A program made the position numbers and the translations under genes. Shown piece by piece: positions 5,817-27,137 of a stretch of DNA of 35,139 nucleotides. Source of the DNA: a virus; UHGV virus genome UHGV-0098759; one strand, written 5' to 3'. The stretch's first letter is position 1, and each line of letters starts with the position of its first letter. The notes beneath the pieces are model-generated. The model made no database searches. It was not told the origin of the DNA and saw only the letters and a program-made list of their open reading frames with translations.

Positions 5817-8800
5817 TTAAGAAACAGTAATACCAGTAGTGGCTTTTTTAGTTACCATTACTGTTAGATCGCTGATATATGCACTTGGGTTATAGTTGTT
5901 AACACCATCACAAATAACTTGGAATGTTAACGTTACAGCACCTTTACCCGCTGGCATGTCAATAACGCCTGTGTACATGCTGCCAGAAGTAGCCGTGCGA
6001 TCATATAGAACAGAGCCATTTTTCTTAACGATTAATCGGCAAGTGTCCCAATGATCACTACTTTCGCCACGACGAACAGACCCGTTATGGTGAATAGCTG
6101 GAATCACAATTTGGCGATCAAACTTATGATCATCTTCCACCCTTACCGTAACAGTGCCATCAGGCCAGTTTTGTTGACGATGAGGGAATTTCTTACCAAT
6201 CACCTTAACGAAATCACCCTTAACCTGAGTAGCTTCAAGCATACCCTTAATAACACAGCTAGAGTTAATCGTGACGTTGTTCAGAGTACCAGAATCAGCC
6301 GTGATATTACCTTTAACGGTAGCATTCATGAACGTAGCGGACCCGTTCTTGTTGATATGCCATCCGGTAGATCCGTTCCAGTTGGAAGACTGGATATAGT
6401 TACCAATTTTGGCGTTATCAATTGCACCGTTTACGATCTTGGCGTTAGTGATTGCCCCGTCCTGAATCTTCGCGCTGTTAATTGCAGCATTTCCGATCTT
6501 AGCGGTAGTAATCGCCGCATCATTAATCTGGGCTGTGCCAATTGCAGCATTACGAATCATCGCATTATCGAGATAAACCTTGTTACCTTCGATACCAAAC
6601 GGGCAAACATCGGTCCCGTTCTGCGGAGCTACAGCAATTTTATCAGCCGTAAAGATGATTTTAGTCGGTTGTGCCGGATCGTTGGTTGCGCTCATGTGAA
6701 TACCAGCCACGCGACCATCTGCATTAACTGCCAGATTGTATTTGCTGTTAATGGTTCCTTTCAAAGCATCGATTTTTACATCTGCTTCCTGATTCACACC
6801 AGCAATCTTGCCATCCATTTCTACCCGAACTTGATCAATCTTACTTGCGCTTGCTGCCTCACTGGTAGCAATAGCTTGTTTCAGGGTAGTAGCAGATGCG
6901 CTAACTTCTTTGGTGATATCGCCTTTCAGTTCAGCTTTAACCTGATCAATCTTAGTTGCACTGGCTTGATCACCAGAAGTAATCAGACTCTTTAAGGTAT
7001 CGGCTGAGGCTTGCACCGTCTGCCCTGTTTCGGTAGTGATTTGCTTATGCATTGCATCAATTTTAGCATCGGCATTAGCGCCAGCTTGAGCAATAGCATC
7101 AGCGATGGTTTCATCTAAGCGATCTTGTAAACCAATCAGGTCTTCCAGTGCTTCTTTGTCCTGGTCGTCCCAACTAATCGTAGACTTCATAGACATGAAA
7201 TAAGGTTCGGACCAGACAGCATCATCCATACCGAAAATATCGTAGTGAGCACCACGGATATAATAATCACCGTCAGCAATATCAAAGGAAGTATGGCTAA
7301 CACTATTCGTGCTTACTGCCCTTGCATCGGAGAAAGTGTTATCGGTTGCATACTGGATGATTGACCCTGCATAGTCATGTTCTACGTCATCTGCCCAGCT
7401 AACAAACGCAGTATTAAAGCCACCACGCGCACTAAAACCTTTCATTGGCTTATGCTGTGGGTTGATAGCCACTAAACGCGCTGGGGCGCTCTCTGAGTTG
7501 TTATAGCCCTTAGCTGATACTTCTACCGTCAGTTGACGCGAAAGGCCGTTAAACTGGTTCATATCAAGCGTATAAGTCCATGATTCAGGATCGCGGGTAC
7601 GGTACTGAATAGACTTACCAGCCTTGTTAGTCACCTTGATAATGTATGCTTCAAACAGGTCACTAAACTTGTTAGTTTCCCCGTTGATCTCAACATCTAA
7701 TTGTTGCTGATTTTCCCATTCGATAATCAGATCATTACCTTCGAAAGTTCCTGGCGTGCTACCCTGATTTTTGATTCGAATAACCGGAGTCGGCAATTCA
7801 TATGTAACAGTTGGATTCTGGTTAATCAGTTCTACCCAATCGGATCGAGCGATGATACCGAAAGCACAAACTCGGTAATCATAAGAACGATCTTTTGCCA
7901 GTGCATTGACACTGAAAATTTGCTGTGAAGTCTGTCCCAGCTTAATCCAGTTAGGTGATCCGCTTACACGGTAATCAATCTGAAAACCATAACGGTTAAA
8001 ATCTTCCGGCGCATCCCATGTCAAAGTAACGTTTTTACCGTAAATCGTCTCGCCAGTTGCCTTAATTCTGAAATTAGTAGGCTTCTGTACTGTCATTGAA
8101 TCCGGTAAACCACTTGGTCTATTGTCTGGAGTTGCCGCATAGTTCAGGTCAGTATAAACCTGAGAATTATATTCTGTGGCGGTGATAGTCATCATCCCAG
8201 CAATACCAGAATCAATCGAGCGATCAATTGCAGTAATACGCCATAAGGAATTATTCAGCTTCAATTCATCATAGGTTACGCTGATAACGTCCCATACTTC
8301 GGCAGTGAATGCGTCAGTAGTCATAAAGCTGATAACCTGAGTGATACGAGATTTATTTCGTTCAATACTCGCAAGTTTATCAATCTGGTCTTTAGACTTA
8401 ACGAAACGATATTCTACATCCTTAGCAATAATTCGACCATCTGCGCGAACAGTAGCATCGTTTTCAGCATCAGCCGGATAACGTAGCATTTGCTCTGAAT
8501 AGTCGATTGATGGTTCCTGATACATTGCGTTAATGGTATTGAAATAACCGTTAGTGCCACCTGTTTTCAGTGATACCTTACCCATCATGATATTGTCTTC
8601 ATTGAAGGTATGCTTAACAATATCAGGAGCATCCAGTTTCAGCGTAATACGTCCAAAGGATTCGAACATCACCCCGCCGAAAGTCTGCATAAGACTGGTC
8701 AAGTTCTCTTTAAAGCTGGCGTTCGGATCACATGCACCGTTTGAATGTAGGTCCATCTGGCGTACTTGTTTACGTACTTTCAGGAATGAATCAACGTTGA

Positions 8801-9563
8801 TGTTTTCAATTGGTACTGATAAACCATATTTTTCATTTGTTAGGTAGTGGAAAATCTGGTCCACGCCGTTAGTGCTAGCCTCAATAGCATTGGTTTCAAG
8901 GTTACGAATCTTTAACCCGCAAACGTCTACTGCTACCTGGCTATTTGGCTGGAGAATATCAACACCAGCAGCAAGAGATTTGTCATCACGACGTAACACA
9001 ATACACATGGTTGCAATGCCGTTACCCTTGAAAGCGTCGGTCCAGTCTGAGCCTAAATGACGTTTTGCCAGCGACAAAGCGGTGTTAGGATTCTTGCCCG
9101 TGCGGAACTCGACTTCTAATACTTTACGATATTCTTCTTTAATGTTGCCCTTATCGAGAATACCATCACGGATCGTCATGTTCTTACCAACAAGAACATT
9201 TTTATTATCAATAAAGAGTGCTTTGTAATGGTCGATTTCACCCTCGGCTACAGAGAAGATTTGCACTAGCTTATTGTTTTCTTGCTTAGAAACTGCTTTG
9301 TAAACACAGTTTGTGCCAGTGCGGGTAGTACCGAAAACGACTGGTATCACCGCTTTCGGATCGTTTGATGTTCCTAGTGTCACCGCATTATCTGGGCTTT
9401 GTACTTTAGGTGTTTTTGGTGCGCCTACAGTGGAAGCGATCAAGGTCATTGCACCAGCAGCCATACCGATAGCGACTGCGGTCATAACAGAAAATGTTGC
9501 AGCAGCAGCCATCCCAGCAGACGCACCAGCAATAACCGCGCCTACCAATATTTCAAATCCCAT
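5817..9563 (-). CDS. central tail fibre / host-specificity protein, lambda J-like
   Basis: 1248 aa; the C-terminal ~150 aa (...DHKFDRQIVIP...VIDMPAGKGAVTLTF...) aligns by eye with the lambda J receptor-binding C-terminus; sits after M/L/K-like genes; start overlaps the K-like stop (TAATG). Confidence 0.85.
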   Translation of the reverse strand: MGFEILVGAVIAGASAGMAAAATFSVMTAVAIGMAAGAMTLIASTVGAPKTPKVQSPDNAVTLGTSNDPKAVIPVVFGTTRTGTNCVYKAVSKQENNKLVQIFSVAEGEIDHYKALFIDNKNVLVGKNMTIRDGILDKGNIKEEYRKVLEVEFRTGKNPNTALSLAKRHLGSDWTDAFKGNGIATMCIVLRRDDKSLAAGVDILQPNSQVAVDVCGLKIRNLETNAIEASTNGVDQIFHYLTNEKYGLSVPIENINVDSFLKVRKQVRQMDLHSNGACDPNASFKENLTSLMQTFGGVMFESFGRITLKLDAPDIVKHTFNEDNIMMGKVSLKTGGTNGYFNTINAMYQEPSIDYSEQMLRYPADAENDATVRADGRIIAKDVEYRFVKSKDQIDKLASIERNKSRITQVISFMTTDAFTAEVWDVISVTYDELKLNNSLWRITAIDRSIDSGIAGMMTITATEYNSQVYTDLNYAATPDNRPSGLPDSMTVQKPTNFRIKATGETIYGKNVTLTWDAPEDFNRYGFQIDYRVSGSPNWIKLGQTSQQIFSVNALAKDRSYDYRVCAFGIIARSDWVELINQNPTVTYELPTPVIRIKNQGSTPGTFEGNDLIIEWENQQQLDVEINGETNKFSDLFEAYIIKVTNKAGKSIQYRTRDPESWTYTLDMNQFNGLSRQLTVEVSAKGYNNSESAPARLVAINPQHKPMKGFSARGGFNTAFVSWADDVEHDYAGSIIQYATDNTFSDARAVSTNSVSHTSFDIADGDYYIRGAHYDIFGMDDAVWSEPYFMSMKSTISWDDQDKEALEDLIGLQDRLDETIADAIAQAGANADAKIDAMHKQITTETGQTVQASADTLKSLITSGDQASATKIDQVKAELKGDITKEVSASATTLKQAIATSEAASASKIDQVRVEMDGKIAGVNQEADVKIDALKGTINSKYNLAVNADGRVAGIHMSATNDPAQPTKIIFTADKIAVAPQNGTDVCPFGIEGNKVYLDNAMIRNAAIGTAQINDAAITTAKIGNAAINSAKIQDGAITNAKIVNGAIDNAKIGNYIQSSNWNGSTGWHINKNGSATFMNATVKGNITADSGTLNNVTINSSCVIKGMLEATQVKGDFVKVIGKKFPHRQQNWPDGTVTVRVEDDHKFDRQIVIPAIHHNGSVRRGESSDHWDTCRLIVKKNGSVLYDRTATSGSMYTGVIDMPAGKGAVTLTFQVICDGVNNYNPSAYISDLTVMVTKKATTGITVS

Positions 9564-10028: not shown

Positions 10029-10682
10029 TTATTTCTTCGATGAATGCCACCTGCTTTCTGATTGCCAGCGACCCGCCCTTGAGAAGAATAGATCGTTCTC
10101 GTTTCCAACATAGGAACGGTGGATACCATCGGAGGCATGACTACGAGCGTTTTTATCTAGAACTTCCCAGATACTATTAAGCTGAAATTCTGATTCGTTT
10201 TTACACTCATCATCTTCATGTTCGATGTTAATCCCGATGGAATCGACTACCCCACGGAAAACAGGGTAAGTGGTTTCAACTTTGCCCGTGTTGGGGTTAA
10301 GGAAAACCATCTCGATTTTCACATCTGATTTATCGAATTGCTTGTTACGAATCAGGGTAATGTATTCTTCGCGAACGTTAGAAACAGTTACGTTGATCCC
10401 GTTGTTGTTGATCTCCTTCTCTTCGGTATTCGATGAGATTTGAAGAAAATCACCCGTTGCGAGATATGTAAAACCGTTATAGTCCAAATCGAAATACCCA
10501 TCTGTAAGCCGTAGAACGTCCCCTGACGCTGTTATCACTTCGATAATGTGAAACATCGATCCAGTGGAGAAAAGCTGCGGTAGCGTCAATCTAGACACAT
10601 TCTGACCTGTCTGGTCGTTGTAGACCTCGATGAAGTCCAGATTAGTGCATAGTTTGCTGAATGATTCCTGAATAGTTGCCAT
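10029..10682 (-). CDS. minor tail protein, lambda L-like
   Basis: Synteny; start MATIQ at 10682 overlaps the upstream stop (TAATG). Confidence 0.5.
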   Translation of the reverse strand: MATIQESFSKLCTNLDFIEVYNDQTGQNVSRLTLPQLFSTGSMFHIIEVITASGDVLRLTDGYFDLDYNGFTYLATGDFLQISSNTEEKEINNNGINVTVSNVREEYITLIRNKQFDKSDVKIEMVFLNPNTGKVETTYPVFRGVVDSIGINIEHEDDECKNESEFQLNSIWEVLDKNARSHASDGIHRSYVGNENDLFFSRAGRWQSESRWHSSKK

Positions 10683-11242
10683 TATACATTCTCCACTAAT
10701 TCGAATTTCATCTTGCCAATCTGGGCGATCTTCCAATCGATATTTTCAGTTTTGAGAACAAATTCACCTTCTACGTTCTGATACTTGATCACCTCACCCG
10801 CTAGGACGTTCTGACGCAAGTTAGGGAAGAGTTTCATTTCACCACCTGATTTCACATCTTCGGTGATCGTGTAGATTTTCTTGTGGTTCTCAAACTGGAT
10901 GATAGTTCCTGCTTTCAGTGTTCCGGTGAAGTTGGAGATTCTCACCTTACGCCCACCGCGAGCAGTACCAGCAGCAGCCGTAACCATCTGGCGTACATCA
11001 CCTGTATATTTTGAAAAGTAAGACAGTGGCACACTAAAAGGACGACCAAAAAGGTGACGTGCTACAAATTCTTTTACTTCGTTAATATCCTGAGCCATGA
11101 AATTAGCTGTAAATTCTGCTTCATAAAAATGAATACCAGTAAAGCGACGCTGGAACTTACCAGAAATAGATTGCGCCTTGAAGAAAGGTTGTTTTGATTT
11201 AAGAGTAAAATCTGTGATTTTAATATTCTTGGATTTGAACAT
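10682..11242 (-). CDS. distal tail protein, lambda M-like position
   Basis: Immediately downstream of the tape measure gene; ATG at 11242 preferred; track ORF starts at GTG 11278 inside the hairpin. Confidence 0.45.
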   Translation of the reverse strand: MFKSKNIKITDFTLKSKQPFFKAQSISGKFQRRFTGIHFYEAEFTANFMAQDINEVKEFVARHLFGRPFSVPLSYFSKYTGDVRQMVTAAAGTARGGRKVRISNFTGTLKAGTIIQFENHKKIYTITEDVKSGGEMKLFPNLRQNVLAGEVIKYQNVEGEFVLKTENIDWKIAQIGKMKFELVENV

Positions 11243-11249
11243 AGAAAAA

Positions 11250-14466: not shown

Positions 14467-14973
14467 TTAAGAGATTTTCAAAGTCTGCTTAGTGCCAGTT
14501 TTCTTAATATTTGTTAGGAAAGCAGCCGGAGGATTGCTTAACCAATAGTAATGAAAACCACTTTGCATACTGTTATAAGGAACAGTGACAGCAGCACCAC
14601 CCAAATTAACGGTTATATTCCCCGCTCTACCGTTCTGGAGATATACAGCCATAGTAGGAGTACCGCCATTGAATTGACCAACGATAACGCCAACCAGACG
14701 CCCTACGCCCACGTTTTCGGGGTTCTCCATAGATCCTTTGCTTTGCATACCGGAAACAGGATAGTTTGAAGCAGTTACACCCCAGTTATTACCCAATGAA
14801 GTAGACCACGATGCAGTAGCTACAACCGTATCCATACCACGACCAGCCATTGCCGACATATTACGCGGAGCCGGAACTTTTAAAGCTGTTAATGCTTCTT
14901 TCATCCATCGCTTACCCGTCACCGATACAGCAGATGACCCGATCCAGCCAGGAACTTTAACGACATTTGCCAT
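14467..14973 (-). CDS. hypothetical Gly/Ser/Ala-rich tail-region protein
   Basis: ORF with GGAG RBS; lies between the tail-tube-like gene and the G chaperone. Confidence 0.45.
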   Translation of the reverse strand: MANVVKVPGWIGSSAVSVTGKRWMKEALTALKVPAPRNMSAMAGRGMDTVVATASWSTSLGNNWGVTASNYPVSGMQSKGSMENPENVGVGRLVGVIVGQFNGGTPTMAVYLQNGRAGNITVNLGGAAVTVPYNSMQSGFHYYWLSNPPAAFLTNIKKTGTKQTLKIS

Positions 14974-14993
14974 TTTGATTACTCCAATAAAAA

Positions 14994-15020
14994 AGCCCCA
15001 CCATTAAGGCAGGGCTTAAA
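14994..15020 (-). terminator. intrinsic terminator after the tail-tube extension (AGCCCUGCC-loop-GGUGGGGCU, then U6)
   Basis: Stem contains G-U wobbles only when read on the minus-strand RNA; homologous in sequence to the terminator at 20926-20955. Confidence 0.55.
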
Positions 15021-15147: not shown

Positions 15148-15621
15148 TCATCCGGCAGTGAAGATTTGCTGTTTCAGCGGAGCACCATCAACAGCAAAGG
15201 TAAACTCTTTCGTTACCACTTCTTCATCGCCACCGTTCATAGCAACTTTAGAGATGAAGCCGTTGAAAGCTGTGCGAATACCAGTCTGTTTTGCTGCATC
15301 TACATAGTATTCAATCTTAATCTGAATTCGAGTACCGTCTTCGGCAGCTTTAATGAGCTTCTCGTGTACCGCATCACCAGGAATGTAGTTAACGGTCAGA
15401 GTCAGATCAGGAACGTTCAGTTTACCTACCAGCTTACGGTTATACTGAGAAGAGAAGGATTTAACTTCTACAGTGCCGCGCTCGATACCAGTTTCAGGAA
15501 AACCAGCACACTCTTTAATTTCTTCATAGCTTTCATGTGCAAGATTGGTGTTAGTGGTATCGGCGTGATAGAACATACTTACCAGACCACCAGTAAAAAT
15601 ATCTTTAAATTGCTGAGACAT
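15148..15621 (-). CDS. tail tube (major tail) protein-like, paralogue A
   Basis: 157 aa; canonical position upstream of the G/T chaperones; paralogous to the N-terminal 165 aa of the 19357..20190 product (shared DIFTG, LTLT.N, AED.T blocks); RBS AAGGGG; ends in TGA. Confidence 0.55.
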   Translation of the reverse strand: MSQQFKDIFTGGLVSMFYHADTTNTNLAHESYEEIKECAGFPETGIERGTVEVKSFSSQYNRKLVGKLNVPDLTLTVNYIPGDAVHEKLIKAAEDGTRIQIKIEYYVDAAKQTGIRTAFNGFISKVAMNGGDEEVVTKEFTFAVDGAPLKQQIFTAG

Positions 15622-15678
15622 AGAATTACCCCTTAATTAAAATTGTTTATAACGGGGGAACTAGTCCCCCGACTTTTA

Positions 15679-18600
15679 TTATTTAGTTGCTTTCAGTTCG
15701 GCAATTTCTTTCTGTAATGCTTCGATCTGTGTTTTATATTTGGCGTCCATTTCCTGCATAGCTTTAATAATCAAGGCATTAACAGCAGAGTTAGAAATAG
15801 TCTTGATTGCTTCCGGTTGTTCTGGATCTTCTGTGGATTGAATACCTACTGCTTCCGGCAATACTTTTTCCAGATCCTGAGCAATAATACCTACTTCGCG
15901 TTTAATCACCGTGTCATCGGAAAGAGATTTAACTTTATCGTAGGTGTAGACTTTCAGTGAGTTTACTTTCTCTAATGCACCGTCCTGTAATTCTTCCTTG
16001 TTAATCTTCAAACGGGAGTCAGAGCGAATGTAAACATCGTTAAAGCTACCGTTACGACCTGCGCTAAAATCACCCGCAGCGTTAAAGTCAAAGTTGGCGT
16101 CGTGAACGTTTAGGCGAGCTAAAGCATTGGTAATAGTACCACTAGGAACATGCACACCCATTGCCGCAATATGATATTTTCCCCAATGAGTCGCTTTCCA
16201 GATGTTATGAGCGGAATCGGTTGAGTTCGGACAGTCTACGAGGATTCCGGCAGAACGATCACGCCAGCTAGCCCAGCTACCACCAGCAACATTACCACGA
16301 ATCAAACCTTTATCAGACCCGCCGACAGTCCCCGCCTCAAGATGAATCATTTTATCAGCAAGTTTCCAAGTTTGACCTTGTTTCTGACCACGGAAGCGGA
16401 TAACACCAGCATCATCGCAGTACATCAAACCTAATTCTAAACCGTTCGGATCTCTAAACCATAAATGCTTATTACCACTGCGACGAAACTCAATATCAGC
16501 ACCGCCAACCTGTATATTGCTCGCAGTTTTTAATGTACCAGCAACAGAGAACAGGATAGGACCAGTTCCACCGTTTGTACGTTCGGTATACCAATGATAA
16601 CTAGTAGCATCCTTACATTCAAAAACCTGTTTGCGTTGCTCGTTACCCCATGTATGTAAGGTAAATTGAGACGCAGATCCACGATTAGCATCAAAGGCAA
16701 TCTCACCGGATTCTACACGCACGAAGCCTTTAAAACGTGCTGTGATATTGCCAGTACCCATAGCGCGTTCAGTGGTAAAGTGTGCACCCTGACTGTCTTC
16801 AATCTGTAGGATGTTATCGCGAGCGTTATTACTATCGCCCCAATGGTTAAACCGGAAGTAATCGCGGGATTGTCCAGCACCAGCATCAAATGTTAAATGT
16901 TGACCTTTGATGTAAGCGTTGCCAGAGAATCGAGCGGCCTTGCTTGCGCGTTCTAGAGTTAATACATCTTCGTTTCCATCACCACCTAATTGAACGTTAC
17001 CGGAAGTAAGATCGTAGATAAAAGGTCGATATGTATTCCAACCACCAAATCTATCATTTTCGGCAGTAGACAACAGATAAACTTTACCACCATCATTTCG
17101 CCAGAATGCACCATACTTACCGTAAATCATACGGAATGCATCAGCGTTAGCGGAATAATATTGACCATTGGTATATACAATTTTTGTTTTTCCTGTAGTC
17201 AAATTTACTTGTCCACTACCTTCCAAATCAAATGAGTTAGCACCAACATCATTACGCCACACAAAACCATCACTAGTACCATCCGCATGACCGATATAAC
17301 CACTACGTTGGTTTTTACCATCACGACGATCCCACCACGCCATATATGCAGCTTGACCAGTCTGTCGATGTAAAGTCATCGCATTACCACTACCGTGCAA
17401 TTCCATTTTACCAGTAATTACATATCCTTTATAATTACCCGGTATTGCACTATTAGAATCAATTCTAATAACTTCTGTAGAATCTGTAGCACCAGTAGCA
17501 AGACGATATACAGCACCCTGAACGGTTTCATGCCAAACCATTTCGTTATAGTTGCTACGGAATTTACGAATATATTTCCGTCCAGTACCTTTATCATTAC
17601 TTAGATGAACAATGTCATAGCTGTTTTGTGTGTTATCATCAAAACTTAACACACCACGTTTATTTTCAGTATTAAAAAGAGTTACGTTGCGACCACCGAT
17701 AACACCAACGGAAGGTTTAATTAACGTGGCTTCCGGCGTATCATAAACCGTCAAACTTACATAAACAGATTTCCCATATTCGACAATAACGTTATCGGTA
17801 TAACGCTGATATTTCACGTAGATATCATAGTTATCACCGGAAGTATTGACAGCAAATACCTCAAAATCTTTGTTTGTATTTCTACGGTATGCAATTACGT
17901 TAAGACCTTTAGGTCTATCGTTACCACTACGCAGAAGAATTTCTACTACGTCAACCTGATCATATGCCGTAACGTTGTAACCATTACCACCATGAATACG
18001 GAAAAACACACTACGCCCGTTTTGTGGAATTGTTGCGGTTGCCAATTTGAAATATGCAGATACGTTTTCGCTAGAATTGGGAACAGACATAACGACGTTT
18101 TTAACAAACATCTTATCAACTTCGGCTTTGGTGTATGCACCAATCTCGCCAGGAGTCGGCTTATCACCTTCGTGATACATCTTATAGCTAAAGTTCTTCT
18201 GTCCTTCTCTATCAAAACCATAGGTTTCAACACGAGATCCACCAGATGCATAACGGAAAGTAAATCCGCGACCGTGCGCTTTACCGGAAGAGTGAGGAAC
18301 GTTAAGAGTTAGATCCATGAGTCCATCTTGACCATTGGTACGGAAAGCACCAAAGTAGTTAAGATCTCGTGATGTCTGGTCTTCCAGATAGTTAGCTGTC
18401 TTGCTTAACAGATACCCACCATGCTTAGTATTGGTATTCTTCTTGATGTAAAGAGCATCATTGCTACCTTCAATACCATCAATTCGTTTGTTAGCGGCTG
18501 CAATTGCGGCATCAGTAGAAGATTTATTCTGGTCTACCTTGTTGTTAATTGCGGTATGGTTGCTATTAACAGTGCCAGTAAGATTGGTAATCTTAGTATC

Positions 18601-19281
18601 CGCGTCTTTCTTATTGTCGGAAACAGTCTTTTCGATCGCTGTCTTGTTAGCTGCAACCGTGCTAGTTAAGCTAGAAATTTTGTTATCTGCATCGGTTTTA
18701 TTTGCAGTAACAGTTTTAGTTAAGTTGCTAACGTTGGTGTTAGTGGTATTAACCTTGTTGTTAATCGCGGTGTTATTGTCAGTGACCGTTTTCGTTAAAG
18801 CTGCATGTTTGCTATCTGCATCAGATTTGTTTGCGGCAACGGTTCTTTCAATTGCGGTCTTATTCGCAGATACGGTCCCCGTAAGGTTATTGATCTTAGT
18901 GTCGGCATCGGTTTTATTTGCCGTAACTGTCTGGGTTAAGTTACTAACAGTGGTGTTGGTAGCATCAATGCGCTTATTGGTCGCTGTATCTTTCGTGGTA
19001 ATAGTCTGATTCAGTTCAGCTTTAGCACTAGCCAGATTATTAGCGGCCTCTTGTTTGTTGGAAGCAATAACACGGTCAGTGCTAGTTTTGTTATTGTCTA
19101 CTTTCGTGTTTAAAGCATTATGACTTTCTGGGGAAACGCTGATTTGAACTACTGCGTTATTTTTGTCTTTGGTGTAAATTACATGGTCTGCCATCTGAAT
19201 AGCGATTTCACCGACCTGTAATTGTTCCGGCGTTGGTTTTTTACCAGCCGTTTGTGTGCGTTTAAATTGGATTGATTGCAT
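15679..19281 (-). CDS. long tail fibre with heptad-like shaft repeats and C-terminal intramolecular-chaperone-like domain
   Basis: 1200 aa; N-terminal third has repeats of type TVTANKTDADTKINNLTGTV; C-terminus (...SDSRLKINKEEL...IEALQKEIAELKATK) resembles self-cleaving chaperone domains of phage fibres; KPTP.EIGA motif at N-terminus and internally. Confidence 0.75.
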   Translation of the reverse strand: MQSIQFKRTQTAGKKPTPEQLQVGEIAIQMADHVIYTKDKNNAVVQISVSPESHNALNTKVDNNKTSTDRVIASNKQEAANNLASAKAELNQTITTKDTATNKRIDATNTTVSNLTQTVTANKTDADTKINNLTGTVSANKTAIERTVAANKSDADSKHAALTKTVTDNNTAINNKVNTTNTNVSNLTKTVTANKTDADNKISSLTSTVAANKTAIEKTVSDNKKDADTKITNLTGTVNSNHTAINNKVDQNKSSTDAAIAAANKRIDGIEGSNDALYIKKNTNTKHGGYLLSKTANYLEDQTSRDLNYFGAFRTNGQDGLMDLTLNVPHSSGKAHGRGFTFRYASGGSRVETYGFDREGQKNFSYKMYHEGDKPTPGEIGAYTKAEVDKMFVKNVVMSVPNSSENVSAYFKLATATIPQNGRSVFFRIHGGNGYNVTAYDQVDVVEILLRSGNDRPKGLNVIAYRRNTNKDFEVFAVNTSGDNYDIYVKYQRYTDNVIVEYGKSVYVSLTVYDTPEATLIKPSVGVIGGRNVTLFNTENKRGVLSFDDNTQNSYDIVHLSNDKGTGRKYIRKFRSNYNEMVWHETVQGAVYRLATGATDSTEVIRIDSNSAIPGNYKGYVITGKMELHGSGNAMTLHRQTGQAAYMAWWDRRDGKNQRSGYIGHADGTSDGFVWRNDVGANSFDLEGSGQVNLTTGKTKIVYTNGQYYSANADAFRMIYGKYGAFWRNDGGKVYLLSTAENDRFGGWNTYRPFIYDLTSGNVQLGGDGNEDVLTLERASKAARFSGNAYIKGQHLTFDAGAGQSRDYFRFNHWGDSNNARDNILQIEDSQGAHFTTERAMGTGNITARFKGFVRVESGEIAFDANRGSASQFTLHTWGNEQRKQVFECKDATSYHWYTERTNGGTGPILFSVAGTLKTASNIQVGGADIEFRRSGNKHLWFRDPNGLELGLMYCDDAGVIRFRGQKQGQTWKLADKMIHLEAGTVGGSDKGLIRGNVAGGSWASWRDRSAGILVDCPNSTDSAHNIWKATHWGKYHIAAMGVHVPSGTITNALARLNVHDANFDFNAAGDFSAGRNGSFNDVYIRSDSRLKINKEELQDGALEKVNSLKVYTYDKVKSLSDDTVIKREVGIIAQDLEKVLPEAVGIQSTEDPEQPEAIKTISNSAVNALIIKAMQEMDAKYKTQIEALQKEIAELKATK

Positions 19282-19299
19282 CTAATCACCTCACATAAA

Positions 19300-19325
19300 A
19301 CAGGAATAAGGGAGGCGTTAACCTC
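19300..19325 (-). terminator. hairpin (GGGGAGG-UUAACG-CCUCCC) with U-rich tail between the 277-aa gene and the fibre gene
   Basis: Perfect 6-7-bp GC stem read on the minus strand, followed by UUAUUCCUGUUUUAU. Confidence 0.4.
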
Positions 19326-19356
19326 CCCGCGTCATGTTTTATTTAGGTAAGCAATC

Positions 19357-20190
19357 TTAATACTCACCGAAGTCGATTCTATCAGTCTTAGCCACTGCGC
19401 CAATTTCGCTAGGTGTCGGTTTCTCATTGGTGGAATATACCTTGATCCATTCAGAGCGACCGTTTTCCTGAATATTTCGGACACGTAAACGTGGTGCACC
19501 GGAAGTATTACAGGTTAATTGCCATGCGCCATGCTCATTAGCTTGAAGGTGAATTAATGATGTATCAGCACCATAAGGGTTAGTGCTAGCCGTTCCTTTG
19601 TAGGTTACGAAGCGGTTTCCTGTCAGAGATTCACTATCAATAGGTCCGGTGAATGGGCTAACGCCTGAGCCTACGCCATAATCCCCTTGTCGCAGAATTT
19701 TTCCCTCGGTCGCTATACCCCTTGCTAGAATCCCGCCATCTGGTTCAAGTTTAAATTCCAGTGTTACAGCTTTGTTATCACTACCACGGGTTTTATGTGA
19801 TGTGACGTAAGCATCGAATATACAAAAGTACCCTGTGTTAGCAGCACTATAGCCAGAGTTCACAACATAGAACATACGGAAGCGTAAAGGTGTTTTATCC
19901 TCTACCGCTTTCATCAACATTGCTTGATGTTCATCGTCAAGAACACGGTTTAATGTGAGTGTTGTCGGTTCCAGTCTACGATAACCAGCAAGTTTCCCCG
20001 TAGCGTCCTGATCGTACTCTTCCAGAGTTTCTATCTCTGTGGATTCGGTTAGCGTAGGGAATGCTGCGATGTTCTCCATAGAACTAAAGCTAGGATCGAA
20101 AAAGTCGACCTGATTGTCTATCTGGTTAGAGATCGACACTTCAACATGTGATCCAGTGAAAATATCTAAGTTATCTTGTGTAATATTCAT
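19357..20190 (-). CDS. tail-tube-like protein, paralogue B, with C-terminal fibre-repeat domain
   Basis: N-terminal ~165 aa paralogous to the 15148..15621 product; C-terminus ends with KPTPSEIGAVAKTD, the same motif found in the adjacent fibre; RBS AAGGGG. Confidence 0.5.
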   Translation of the reverse strand: MNITQDNLDIFTGSHVEVSISNQIDNQVDFFDPSFSSMENIAAFPTLTESTEIETLEEYDQDATGKLAGYRRLEPTTLTLNRVLDDEHQAMLMKAVEDKTPLRFRMFYVVNSGYSAANTGYFCIFDAYVTSHKTRGSDNKAVTLEFKLEPDGGILARGIATEGKILRQGDYGVGSGVSPFTGPIDSESLTGNRFVTYKGTASTNPYGADTSLIHLQANEHGAWQLTCNTSGAPRLRVRNIQENGRSEWIKVYSTNEKPTPSEIGAVAKTDRIDFGEY

Positions 20191-20199
20191 TATTACCCC

Positions 20200-20622
20200 T
20201 TAAAAACGCGCTAGATAAGAAAATTTAAGGCTAAGTGTCCCAACGATACCCCCATCACTAGAATCATCGTCATAATCGGTATTAGAAGCTACTGGAGTGA
20301 TATCTGAAATAGAGAAGCCCAAATCTTTAAATCGTGGGTTATCCGGCTGAATCTGGATTATCTGGCAAATACCCTCATGGATTTTTGTTTCATGAATCTG
20401 AGAATATAATTGCATTTCGATAACGCATTCAGCTTGCATTGCATTACCACCACGGACCCTAGTGTAAGTCTCATTCATGCCAGTAATCCAACAAACCACG
20501 TCATCACTAAAACCTTGCTGAGTTTGTTCTACGTTTAAAGCCAGACCTAAATCTTGTTCGATAATATCTTGCAAGGCGCGTTTGATTTTCAGTCTAGGCA
20601 TATTATTAACGGTAGCGAGCAT
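20200..20622 (-). CDS. head-tail joining or tail completion protein (hypothetical)
   Basis: Position between the capsid and tail genes; ATG at 20622 with RBS AGGGGG preferred over the track start at 20670, which overlaps the upstream ORF by 65 nt. Confidence 0.45.
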   Translation of the reverse strand: MLATVNNMPRLKIKRALQDIIEQDLGLALNVEQTQQGFSDDVVCWITGMNETYTRVRGGNAMQAECVIEMQLYSQIHETKIHEGICQIIQIQPDNPRFKDLGFSISDITPVASNTDYDDDSSDGGIVGTLSLKFSYLARF

Positions 20623-20896
20623 GTGTACCCCCTGCCAGAGTAATAAAGCAATCAGTGGTATTATCACCATTGCGCTTAACGTATTGAACTTTGAAACGCT
20701 GATTTTCTACAGTGACAATATCACCCTGCTTTAAGTCTCCCTCACGACAAAATAGAAATTCTGTCTCTGTCATTACCCCTGATTCGTCGGTAGTAGTAAT
20801 TTCATGATAAGCACGAATTGATTTACCACCTTCCACCGAAAATACAGGAGCACTCTTAAACATTCTTGATAATTGTGATTCTGATAATTTGAACAT
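20606..20896 (-). CDS. head-tail connector or head completion protein (hypothetical)
   Basis: 96 aa immediately after the capsid gene; RBS AAAGGGGG. Confidence 0.45.
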   Translation of the reverse strand: MFKLSESQLSRMFKSAPVFSVEGGKSIRAYHEITTTDESGVMTETEFLFCREGDLKQGDIVTVENQRFKVQYVKRNGDNTTDCFITLAGGTHARYR

Positions 20897-20925: not shown

Positions 20926-20955
20926 CAAAAAAGCCCCGCCAATAACGGCAGGGCT
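20926..20955 (-). terminator. intrinsic terminator after the capsid extension (AGCCCUGCC-GUUAUU-GGCGGGGCU, then U6)
   Basis: 9-bp stem with one G-U wobble formed only on the minus-strand RNA, followed by a T6 run. Confidence 0.6.
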
Positions 20956-25223: not shown

Positions 25224-27137
25224 TTAAAAGTTATTTACCCACCCACCACGACGCACAGGACGCGCCATAGGACGACGATTAGGTTTGTGATGAGTGATTG
25301 GCTTAGTTTCTTCGATTTGCTCGTTAGAATGTGATTTAGGAGCTTCTACGGTTGCTTCTGGTTCACGATTCAGCTTTTCTTTCATTGCAATGAGCTTATC
25401 CCATGACATTTTTGAAAGAACATAGCGAGAAGCCGCATAGCTATAAACCAGACAGTCGAGCGCCTCGTTTCGTGTCGCACCTGGATTTTTTACCCAACGT
25501 GTTCCAGTAACAGTACGCTTGATGGATTCACTCAAAAGCTGATCGAGATAATCATCAGGAACGGTTTCTGATATCTCTAAACCAATATGAGGGTTTTCTT
25601 TCAAGTTGCGTGTTAATAGCTCACGAATAGCCGTTTTACCCACGTTAACGCCCAACATAAGCAATTCATGACCACCCGTGGTAGTTGGTTTCACCGGAAT
25701 GATTGGAGCAGTACCAGATGAACTACCTTTGATTGCGTGTAAGTTCTTCCACTTACCACCGCAAATACGGTATCCGGCTTGAGTGAATCGACCGTTCGAT
25801 GTATCAAGGAAGCTGGCGAGCATAGGAACACGATCACCCGATACAGTAGTAAATTTGGTTTTATGGAAGTTGATTAATCTGTCCCATACAGGAGATTCAT
25901 ATCGTTCACAGTTATGGTCGTAAAAGCTGCGATGATCCAGAATATAAATCTTATCCTTTGCCACGCCCATGATCGTAGTTTCTGCGCGATCTAATTGCTG
26001 GTCAGTACCCGCACACAAGAAAATCACGTCATCAGGGATATTCTCGATAGAAACATCTGTTTTGAGTTGTTCCAGTTCATTTGCTTCTACTGCCGTGTCC
26101 TGATCGTCGTATACCTTACCTAACACTGTGTTATAAAATGATTGTAAATCAAAGGATTGCCACGCATGACTAAAATCAACCACACAAGCGCGGATACTAC
26201 TGAAAGGTGAATACAGACGGCTGATCCAGAATCCTGCTACTTCACTTTCACGGGTTGCTCTCCACTCGCCTTGCGCTACTGCCCTGATTCGTTCCCCTTC
26301 TGTCCATGATTGCTTACAGTGGGGGCAAATATAACGAGCGGTATCAGGATCGGGTAAGTTCTTACCATCGATGTTACGCCATTCAAATTGAACGTTTTCC
26401 CACTCGATCACCTGGTGTTCCCCGCAATGAGGACACGGAACAAAAAACATACGCATATCACTTGATAACCATTGCTGGTTAATGATTCCCAGCTTATTGG
26501 TTGGGGTACTAGAAACAATCAATCGAGCTTCATCACCAAAGGTAGTTAAACGGTTTGCAGTTAGTGCCACCGGACAACCTTCTTCGGTGATTGTTGCTGC
26601 GTCGCATTCGTCTACAATCCCTAACTTGGCAGTACGCCCACGCAAACTTGAAGGACTGGTCAAAGAAACCATGTAAAGGAAATGGTTTGTTTTTAGCTGA
26701 ATCTGGTTATTGTTGTTTACCGCATTACGATCATTCTTATCTGTTACCACTTCCTGTAATGCCGGACATGCTTCAATAGAAGGACGGATCTTAGTATTCA
26801 AGTACATAGCCACTTCTTTAGCGGTACTTTGCCCGATAATGATATTGCACGGATCGTTTGCCATCTGGTTAAACATGATCCCTGACATGATGGTCGTCTT
26901 TCCGATCTGCGCACTCGTACAAAAAACGTACTTCTTTTTCTTCTCAAGGAAAGGAGCATCAATCATGCCTTTCTGAAATGACAGTAATTTAACTTTATCC
27001 CCAGCACGAGGACCATCGACTAGCGTTAGATTCGCTTCGCACCATTCAGAAGGAAGGAGTTTAGGCGGTGGCGTAATATATTTGGCTGCATTTCTGAGAA
27101 TCTTTTTTAATTTGGCCTTATTAGAAATCAGTTTCAT
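25224..27137 (-). CDS. terminase large subunit, lambda A-like
   Basis: 637 aa; CPHCGEHQ and [14 protein letters not shown] motifs match the corresponding lambda large-terminase segments as recalled; RBS GAGGG. Confidence 0.9.

Follow-up and report, generated by a model that had tools for sequence, protein, structure and literature searches.

The window analysed here is the whole of the 35,139-nucleotide (nt) virus genome UHGV-0098759, a stretch of 35 kb that corresponds to an Escherichia coli prophage. Its minus strand carries open reading frames (ORFs) for a 277-amino acid (aa) protein (19357-20190), a 1200-aa fibre (15679-19281) and a 157-aa tail tube protein (TTP; 15148-15621). The analysis, which was computational throughout, suggests that the 277-aa and 1200-aa products are probably the two halves of a single tail fibre, the foot of which is a paralogue of the tube protein. 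This role of the 277-aa protein as an anchor emerges from its relatives, in most of which a single polypeptide runs from the same tube-like N-terminus into a full fibre, while the versions split across two genes always pair the same type of C-terminal tail with the same type of fibre N-domain. To our knowledge, the fixing of accessory fibres to non-contractile tails has been solved structurally only for external collars, those of lambda Stf and T5 p132. The arrangement in the window indicates a third solution, in which the fibre's own N-terminus would be a tube paralogue built into the tail.

A tube protein paralogue with a fibre-type extension

The first-pass annotation of the window, in which the coordinates of all three ORFs were exact, had proposed that the 157-aa and 277-aa products are paralogous proteins of the tube type, and that the longer copy joins a tube-fold domain to a fibre-type C-terminal domain. 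Both proposals were borne out. The proteins share 29% identity across the whole length of the 157-aa product (E=3e-15), and both match PHROG 158, 'major tail protein', the 277-aa protein across residues 10-154 (E=1.2e-8) and the 157-aa protein at E=1.3e-20. A first AlphaFold2 model of the 277-aa protein, built from close homologues, had a predicted local distance difference test score (pLDDT) of 63, and a second, built from 77 diverse homologues, one of 78.8. The second model comprises a well-defined domain (residues 13-163), then a disordered glycine-rich segment (164-189) and another beta domain (190-256), with the N-terminal domain displaying the beta-sandwich, flanking helix and long beta-hairpin expected of the tube fold.

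The gene can therefore be divided into four parts, all on the minus strand. The first is the TTP paralogue domain (residues 1-163; 19702-20190), proposed to be a ring-forming anchor. It is followed by a flexible glycine-rich linker (residues 164-189; 19624-19701), reading GDYGVGSGV...GN, for which pLDDT ranged from below 50 to 61 in both models; G172 and G174, together with G191 and N192 just beyond the linker, are invariant across the 77 homologues. The third part is a beta domain of the fibre 'knob' type (residues 190-256; 19423-19623), and the last a C-terminal tail, KPTPSEIGAVAKTDRIDFGEY (residues 257-277; 19360-19422), proposed as the docking element for the distal fibre on the grounds of its conservation, its co-occurrence with the fibre N-domain and the selection acting upon it.

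The best structural and sequence matches of the 277-aa protein were tube proteins, and those in BFVD were ordinary tube proteins only. Searches of Pfam and NCBIfam yielded no match, and the best match among PDB sequences was insignificant (E=0.49), being a resemblance of the C-terminal domain to the XM1 'collar spike protein' that was too weak to be used. This pattern bears on whether the 277-aa protein might instead be a tail terminator, in the role of lambda gpU or SPP1 gp17, which has been extended by a fibre-binding domain. Terminators normally lack similarity to tube proteins of the kind that links this protein to the phage's own TTP, and a separate conserved protein of terminator size, of about 140 aa, is encoded just upstream, with one of its homologues weakly matching the SPP1 gp17 family. 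Hence a terminator role is extremely improbable.

The 157-aa protein is assigned as the major tube subunit on three grounds. Firstly, its matches to TTP profiles are the stronger of the two, although its score against Pfam Phage_TTP_11 (28.2 bits) falls just under the cut-off of 28.4. Secondly, its gene lies directly upstream of those for the tail assembly chaperone (TAC), a T-like ORF and the tape measure protein. Thirdly, a terminator-like hairpin is found directly downstream, as it is after the capsid gene. In this phage lineage the TTPs and the anchor N-domains form two separate, sister clades: identity between an anchor and a TTP is 17-32% whichever genomes are paired, compared with 33-72% between TTPs and 20-60% between anchors. 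Since the distance between the two clades is no smaller within a genome than between genomes, the duplication is older than the lineage, and both concerted evolution and a recent duplication were rejected as explanations. Judged by these sequence comparisons, the 277-aa protein is the product of a duplication of the phage's own TTP; the paralogy first noted in the window therefore stands, with the duplication being ancient rather than recent.

Fused and split fibres in related loci

A profile search for the 277-aa family recovered 278 clusters, defined at 50% identity, and architectures were counted in the best 150. A tube-like N-terminus with an extension was found in 113 of these 150, with total lengths of 280-1563 aa (median 916 aa), alongside 13 plain tube proteins and 23 fibres that shared only the knob module. 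Many of the long homologues end in S74 or coiled-coil chaperone sequences. These fused homologues identify the 277-aa protein as the N-terminal module of a family of fibres with a tube-paralogue foot.

Gene order was constant in all of the roughly 60 loci retrieved, which comprised E. coli relatives, the GenBank record DCP80, metagenomic contigs, genome assemblies and IMG/VR contigs: the capsid gene precedes genes for proteins of about 100 aa and 140 aa, then the anchor or fused fibre, in some loci a second fibre, the TTP and, usually, the chaperone and tape measure. Loci L006, L012 and L013 have the fused architecture, in which a single polypeptide of 1057-1349 aa, without the tail and without a second fibre gene, is followed directly by the TTP gene. 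In the split architecture, the first protein (257-1209 aa) ends in a DFGxF-type tail, and the next ORF opens with a conserved N-domain. Split anchors, of 275-1209 aa, all end in ...(I/V/L)D(F/L)G.(F/Y), with the tail of the split clade reading ...KPTxxxIGA...(I/V)DFGE(Y/F), and the consensus of the distal-fibre N-domain is [KQ]F[KL]R[ST]..AG..PT...L.EGE[IL]A[IV]N..DK.[IL][FY]TK. Relatives of 482 and 698 aa carry extra fibre-type modules between the KPTP motif and their C-terminal ...IDFGE(F/Y) tail. The anchor tail was paired with a downstream FKR-type N-domain in 52 of 52 loci, and particular forms of the tail go with particular forms of the N-domain, a pattern that linkage alone could also yield. 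A fusion of the 277-aa and 1200-aa ORFs by readthrough or frameshifting was considered and rejected, as several stop codons interrupt the 75-nt in-frame spacer, and the fibre ATG has a strong GAGGTG ribosome-binding site in front of it.

Hence the comparative evidence, drawn from the fused homologues and the unbroken pairing of tail and N-domain, strongly favours the first-pass view of the 277-aa protein as a fibre anchor. The same homologues allow this to be weighed against a different role, as a second type of tube subunit, built together with the 157-aa protein into the full length of the tail and decorating it with adhesion knobs, leaving the 1200-aa fibre to be attached elsewhere. The full-length TTP fold and outward-facing C-terminal beta domain of the 277-aa protein would suit such a role, and decorated tube proteins are common, as is apparent from TpeX and from BFVD matches with fibronectin type III (FN3) or immunoglobulin (Ig) extensions. 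However, the same N-domain bears fibres of 600-1500 aa in homologues, which would be implausible on every ring of a tube; the C-terminal tail is strictly paired with the downstream fibre; and the separation of the paralogue from the TTP clade across the lineage suggests that it occupies a distinct structural position. A decorated tube is therefore a highly improbable explanation.

Of 50,697 sequenced phage records in INPHARED, the family was present in one, that of Escherichia phage DCP80. This 141-kb record (L001, PQ671644.1, 1-21560) is filed as a T4-like Gaprivervirus, and opens with a siphophage-type head and tail module of more than 20 kb that encodes a 699-aa anchor, a 745-aa fibre and a 164-aa TTP. 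The record is probably a chimeric assembly.

A conserved joint before exchangeable fibre bodies

Among E. coli genomes, the anchor gene and the first ~53 codons of the fibre gene are 85-92% identical at the nucleotide level, whereas the body of the fibre is swapped for unrelated bodies of the pyocin-knob type, the S74 type and others. The FKR N-domain is kept in distant lineages too. A constant anchor and N-domain followed by an exchanged body is the usual signature of a virion-attachment domain preceding an exchangeable receptor-binding part. In the window this attachment domain, MQSIQFKRTQTAGKKPTPEQLQVGEIAIQMADHVIYTKDKNNAVVQISVS, corresponds to fibre residues 1-53 (19123-19281), and profile searches of Pfam and PDB returned no match to it; a resemblance to the N-terminal motif of Mtd/HylP-type fibres was not borne out by the same searches, and is not claimed.

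A KPTP motif had first been noted as shared between the anchor and both the N-terminus and the middle of the fibre. Two knob-terminal KPTP.EIGA copies do recur. The copy at the fibre N-terminus, KPTPEQLQVGEIA, instead sits in a separate conserved module, FKR..AG..PT..L.GE.A.N..D..YTKD, and the literal KPTP is often missing from the fibre N-termini of relatives (e.g. GYIPKAADLLEGE and GQKPAVASLKEGE), so it is not shown to be the same motif as the other two. Rather than a shared KPTP motif, the elements conserved at the joint are the DFGE(Y/F) tail of the anchor and the ~53-aa FKR...YTKD N-domain of the fibre.

Beyond the joint, the fibre is a mosaic. Residues 54-288 (18418-19122) form a shaft rich in Asn, Thr and Ala, in which a segment of about 70-84 aa is duplicated (73% identity, E=8e-28) and shorter sub-repeats are also present; these repeats exist at the protein level only, as Tandem Repeats Finder detected no DNA tandem repeats in the fibre gene. 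The shaft repeats that had been described are therefore real, with the term 'heptad-like' applying only loosely. Residues 289-1086 (16024-18417) are a distal-subunit body of the RB49 gp37 type, with a knob ending KPTPGEIGAYTKAEVD and a Gp34_trimer domain (Pfam E=1.9e-37); this body also matches PHROG 1699 (E=2e-145), as well as gp34 and Mu S in PDB. From about residue 289 to 1178, the gene is ~80% identical at the nucleotide level to gp37 of RB49-like Krischvirus phages (RB49 gp37 residues ~71-929), while T-even phages gave no DNA match to the first 288 residues, which are lineage-specific. On this nucleotide evidence, two thirds of the fibre is a horizontally acquired gp37 of the RB49 type, a feature that the first-pass annotation had overlooked, as it had the gp38-like gene described below. 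The final part, residues 1087-1200 and the stop codon (15679-16023), is an S74 intramolecular chaperone with a C-terminal coiled coil, the Peptidase_S74 match (Pfam E=8.5e-14, residues 1087-1145) agreeing with the chaperone-like C-terminus predicted from the sequence.

The importation of this body, together with the existence of fused versions, raises the question of whether the 277-aa gene is merely a non-functional stump, left by the insertion of a foreign fibre gene into a once-fused one. Yet its length is kept at 275-281 aa in close homologues from Escherichia, Salmonella, Providencia, Edwardsiella and Proteus, and split anchors of many lengths retain the same tail. Across 34 alleles of 277 codons, the ratio of non-synonymous to synonymous substitution rates (dN/dS) was 0.14-0.20 in the N-domain, linker, knob and tail alike, with that of the tail being 0.20. 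Every part of the gene is under purifying selection. Selection and conservation therefore already effectively refute a stump, which is scarcely credible.

The fibre body has a proposed partner in the 168-aa product encoded at 14467-14973 on the minus strand, a gp38-like tail-fibre adhesin. This product matches PHROG 1121, 'tail fiber adhesin' (E=1.7e-34), and scores 56 bits with Pfam Gp38_N, for which the cut-off is 25 (E=3.9e-15). It is displaced downstream of the TTP gene, such that the tube gene and its terminator-like hairpin part it from the fibre gene. In relatives L052, L054 and L063 a gp38-like ORF comes immediately after the fibre, so the position of the gene in the window reflects a local rearrangement. 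No gp38 gene lies next to gp37 in RB49, the nearest source of this fibre body. In other relatives, an ORF of 130-148 aa follows the distal fibre at the place where a gp38-like gene is otherwise carried (L010:11496-11888; L062:15119-15565), and from its position and size we take this to be a Tfa-type fibre assembly chaperone. With S74, gp38-like and Tfa-like partners, at least three assembly types of fibre body would be swapped behind one attachment domain.

Proposed assembly and position of the anchor ring

In the mechanism that we propose, the TTP-like domains would assemble into, or within, a hexameric ring that forms part of the tail tube, with three linkers of ~25 residues converging on one trimeric knob. 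A hexameric ring would then bear two fibres, or only one if it were a mixed 3+3 ring shared with the TTP; in Nocturne116 two distal tail proteins form a ring of this mixed 3+3 kind, which provides a precedent (PMC13595954). The three DFGEY tails of the knob would dock the trimeric N-domain of the 1200-aa distal half-fibre, which the S74 chaperone would fold before being cleaved off, and the gp38-like adhesin would cap the fibre tip and bind the receptor. The simplest origin of the anchor-fibre-tube gene order would be a tandem duplication of the tube gene, followed by the fusion of the upstream copy to a fibre.

The position of such a ring is a separate matter. Both the ring and the placement of a side fibre at the tip are inferred. 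Within this model, we lean slightly towards a single specialised ring beside the distal tail protein at the tip end, by analogy with T5 p140. The tip is favoured by that precedent, by the location of the side fibres of lambda and T5 at the tip end, and by a simple assembly logic. A head-proximal ring is the main alternative within the model, tenable but doubtful; in it the same anchor would form a ring between the terminator and the first tube ring, from which neck fibres, as a collar or whiskers, would hang along the tail. As an explanation in its own right this is unlikely, even though several observations accord with it. In all of the ~60 loci, the anchor gene comes immediately after those for head-tail joining and precedes that for the tube, and the neck passage structure (NPS) gene of 936 phages occupies the same place, upstream of mtp, with immunogold electron microscopy locating its product between head and tail (PMC4759559). 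The anchor and fibre together total 1050-1700 aa, which, without an estimate of their length, was judged enough to reach toward the tip. However, a tandem duplication of the tube gene accounts equally well for the gene position and has no structural implication, and the tip end is weighted above the neck end for this reason. Furthermore, the tip end is where the characterised rings of tube-fold paralogues (T5 p140 and T4 gp54) are located, along with the side fibres of lambda and T5; a ring found only at the top would require a length-sensing rule like that of a terminator; and adhesins of the gp37/gp38 type normally act beside the tip.

Several points weigh against a fibre with a tube-paralogue foot at the tip of the tail. 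Firstly, the presence of the 277-aa protein in virions, its formation of rings and its binding of the fibre are predicted rather than observed directly. Secondly, the structure of the protein was predicted as a monomer only, such that ring stacking and the complex of tail and N-domain lie outside the model. Thirdly, a hexameric ring feeding trimeric fibres requires a 6-to-2x3 (or 3+3) arrangement, which is assumed. Fourthly, the placement at the tip must contend with the position of the gene immediately beyond the neck genes, the site at which the neck collar and whisker protein is encoded in lactococcal phages (PMC4759559). Fifthly, the co-occurrence of tail and N-domain could partly reflect the linkage of adjacent genes. 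Finally, the family has essentially no cultured representative.

In several diverged relatives, the tube gene is directly followed by DUF6950 and J-like genes (L008:11747-16592, L010:11891-16654, L062:15634-20776 and L063:15544-20630, and also L009, L060, L061 and L064). These loci are without assembly chaperone, tape measure, Dit and gpL-like genes, have gaps of only ~80-90 nt, and encode anchors that are 46-61% identical to one another. The conservation of this architecture across lineages suggests functional phages with a very short siphophage-derived tail, rather than one decayed prophage. A bolder reading, and quite an unlikely one, would have the fibres be part of the DNA conduit itself, so that receptor binding could reach the tube lattice mechanically with neither baseplate nor collar in between; in the relatives with the short gene order, the anchor ring and one or a few TTP rings would then be the whole of a short tail, a living intermediate between long- and short-tailed phages.

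The prophage and its other late genes

Where compared, stretches of the window between 13700 and 25000 matched the E. coli PI7 and 24AR0357 chromosomes with 100% identity. In these chromosomes, the prophage, which encodes a serine recombinase, is inserted in hicB. This antitoxin gene is split by integration via the large serine recombinase (window ends; L002 643-762 and 35895-36203), and codB is the integration site of a related prophage in another strain (L005). Related prophages were found in 55-58 of 5426 complete E. coli genomes.

The late genes on the minus strand begin with those for a gpA-type large terminase, a 164-aa protein, the portal, a protease-capsid fusion, the 96-aa FII-like protein and the 140-aa protein. 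These are followed by the genes for the 277-aa protein, the 1200-aa fibre, the 157-aa tube protein and the 168-aa gp38-like protein, and then by those for the TAC and an adjacent ORF, probably its frameshift (T-like) partner, an 810-aa tape measure, Dit-like, gpL-like and DUF6950 proteins, and a J-like tip protein. Profiles of the ORFs between the capsid and tape measure genes matched FII-like, TTP, fibre, gp38 and TAC families only, with no collar-like domain among them. The Dit-like gene (10682-11245), with a weak match to DTP-pb9_B, is separate from the 277-aa gene.

On the neck side, a 96-aa product (20606-20896, minus strand) resembles the lambda FII head-tail joining protein, through a Pfam Phage_attach match (E=3.7e-5) that is below the cut-off and an NCBIfam tail_join_FII match (E=0.039). 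The 140-aa protein (20200-20622, minus strand) is conserved directly upstream of the anchor gene in all relatives, across ~60 loci, and is a candidate tail terminator or completion protein; it has no PDB or NCBIfam match, and the weak match of its family to that of SPP1 gp17 was found in one of nine homologues (E=0.01). The terminator-like hairpin after the TTP gene (14993-15017, minus strand) has a 10-bp stem with 6-7 GC pairs and a T run, and that after the capsid gene (20932-20955, minus strand) is very similar, both having the form AGCCCTGCC...GGCGGGGCT followed by a T run. As plausible attenuators, they would mark out the two structural proteins of greatest abundance.

The large terminase gene (25224-27137, minus strand) is flagged as 'frameshifted; internal stop' in the RefSeq annotation of the identical PI7 prophage. 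Its ORF in the window encodes 637 aa, compared with 634-642 aa in relatives, so that an artefact of annotation, and not a genuine defect, may account for the flag. The J-like tip protein (5817-9563, minus strand) opens with a long hydrophobic segment of ~45 codons, rich in Ala and Gly (MGFEILVGAVIAGASAGMAAAATFSVMTAVAIGMAAGAMTLIAS), that is kept in relatives, including those without a tape measure, and may be a membrane-active or gpI-like segment fused to J.

Relation to known tail and fibre systems

No description of a tail fibre with a tube-protein N-terminus was found in literature searches on tube paralogues, TTP-like proteins, tube-fibre fusions or neck passage structures, and the evidence points to a means of fixing fibres on a long tail, via a tube-paralogue foot, that has not been described in any studied phage. 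Such anchoring would be widespread in uncultured phages and prophages, with at least 113 clusters in a family that is without a Pfam or NCBIfam model or a solved structure. The joint marks a natural swap point, behind which T-even gp37/gp38, presumed Tfa-dependent and S74-type bodies are exchanged, and is hence of use both for the engineering of host range and for the annotation of receptor-binding proteins in prophages. The E. coli strains that carry the prophage are available, which makes the proposal open to immediate test.

T5 offers the nearest known system, in which p140, a duplicate of the TTP, forms a single ring at the tip end, on which the fibre collar is supported (PMC10038345). The likeness would lie in a ring formed by a paralogue that arose from the phage's own TTP. 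However, T5 p140 is bare and makes no fibre contact, with the L-shaped pb1 fibres instead held by p132, an Ig-like dodecameric collar, whereas the 277-aa protein bears its own linker, knob and tail, such that the tube-like domain would itself be fused to the base of the fibre. In addition, the p140 gene lies downstream of the tube gene, and the 277-aa gene upstream, and the pseudo-hexamers of T5 are trimeric.

The fibres of lambda show how a ring can be matched to a trimer. The collar domains of Stf are monomeric and joined by linkers of ~10 residues to a trimeric fibre, such that 12 domains give rise to four fibres (PMC12617516). Ring-forming monomeric N-domains, short flexible linkers and the convergence of three chains on one trimeric fibre are the design shared with the proposed anchor, and solve the mismatch between ring and trimer. 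Yet the Stf domain is a small beta-sheet-plus-helix collar outside the gpV/gpM junction, rather than a tube paralogue, stf lies after J, and the sequences are not similar. No Pfam or PDB match to a Stf-type collar N-domain of ~90 aa was obtained with the fibre N-terminus or with the 277-aa protein, the gene for which is upstream of that for the tube.

Other proteins share single features with the anchor. Dit proteins, such as lactococcal p2 ORF15, are encoded after the tape measure and form the hub of the tip complex, and the anchor is far closer to the TTP than to Dit. Decorated tube proteins, such as lambda gpV with its Ig domain, SPP1 gp17.1* and lactococcal TpeX, similarly combine a tube domain with an outward C-terminal domain of the adhesion type. 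These are the major subunit, or a frameshifted or extended form of it, and carry small Ig or FN3 domains along the whole tail, whereas the anchor is an ancient and separate paralogue with a trimeric fibre module or a whole fibre. The NPS of lactococcal 936 phages, their collar and whiskers, is likewise an accessory structure resembling a fibre, with its gene directly upstream of that for the major tail protein; its neck location is proven, no homology to it was found, and it is not reported to be a tube-protein paralogue (PMC4759559).

The distal half of the fibre, by contrast, is shared with the long tail fibres of T-even phages, in the form of the RB49 gp37 body, the S74 chaperone and a Gp38_N adhesin gene of the type found with T2 and S16 gp38, and the concept of a fibre jointed end to end recalls T4 gp34-gp37. 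Where RB49 gp37 has a gp36-binding N-terminus (its first ~70 aa), the window has the prophage-specific attachment domain and repeat shaft. Hence, while the T-even fibre joins a myophage baseplate via gp34 and gp9, the fibre of this prophage is proposed to join a siphophage tail via a paralogue of its own tube protein.

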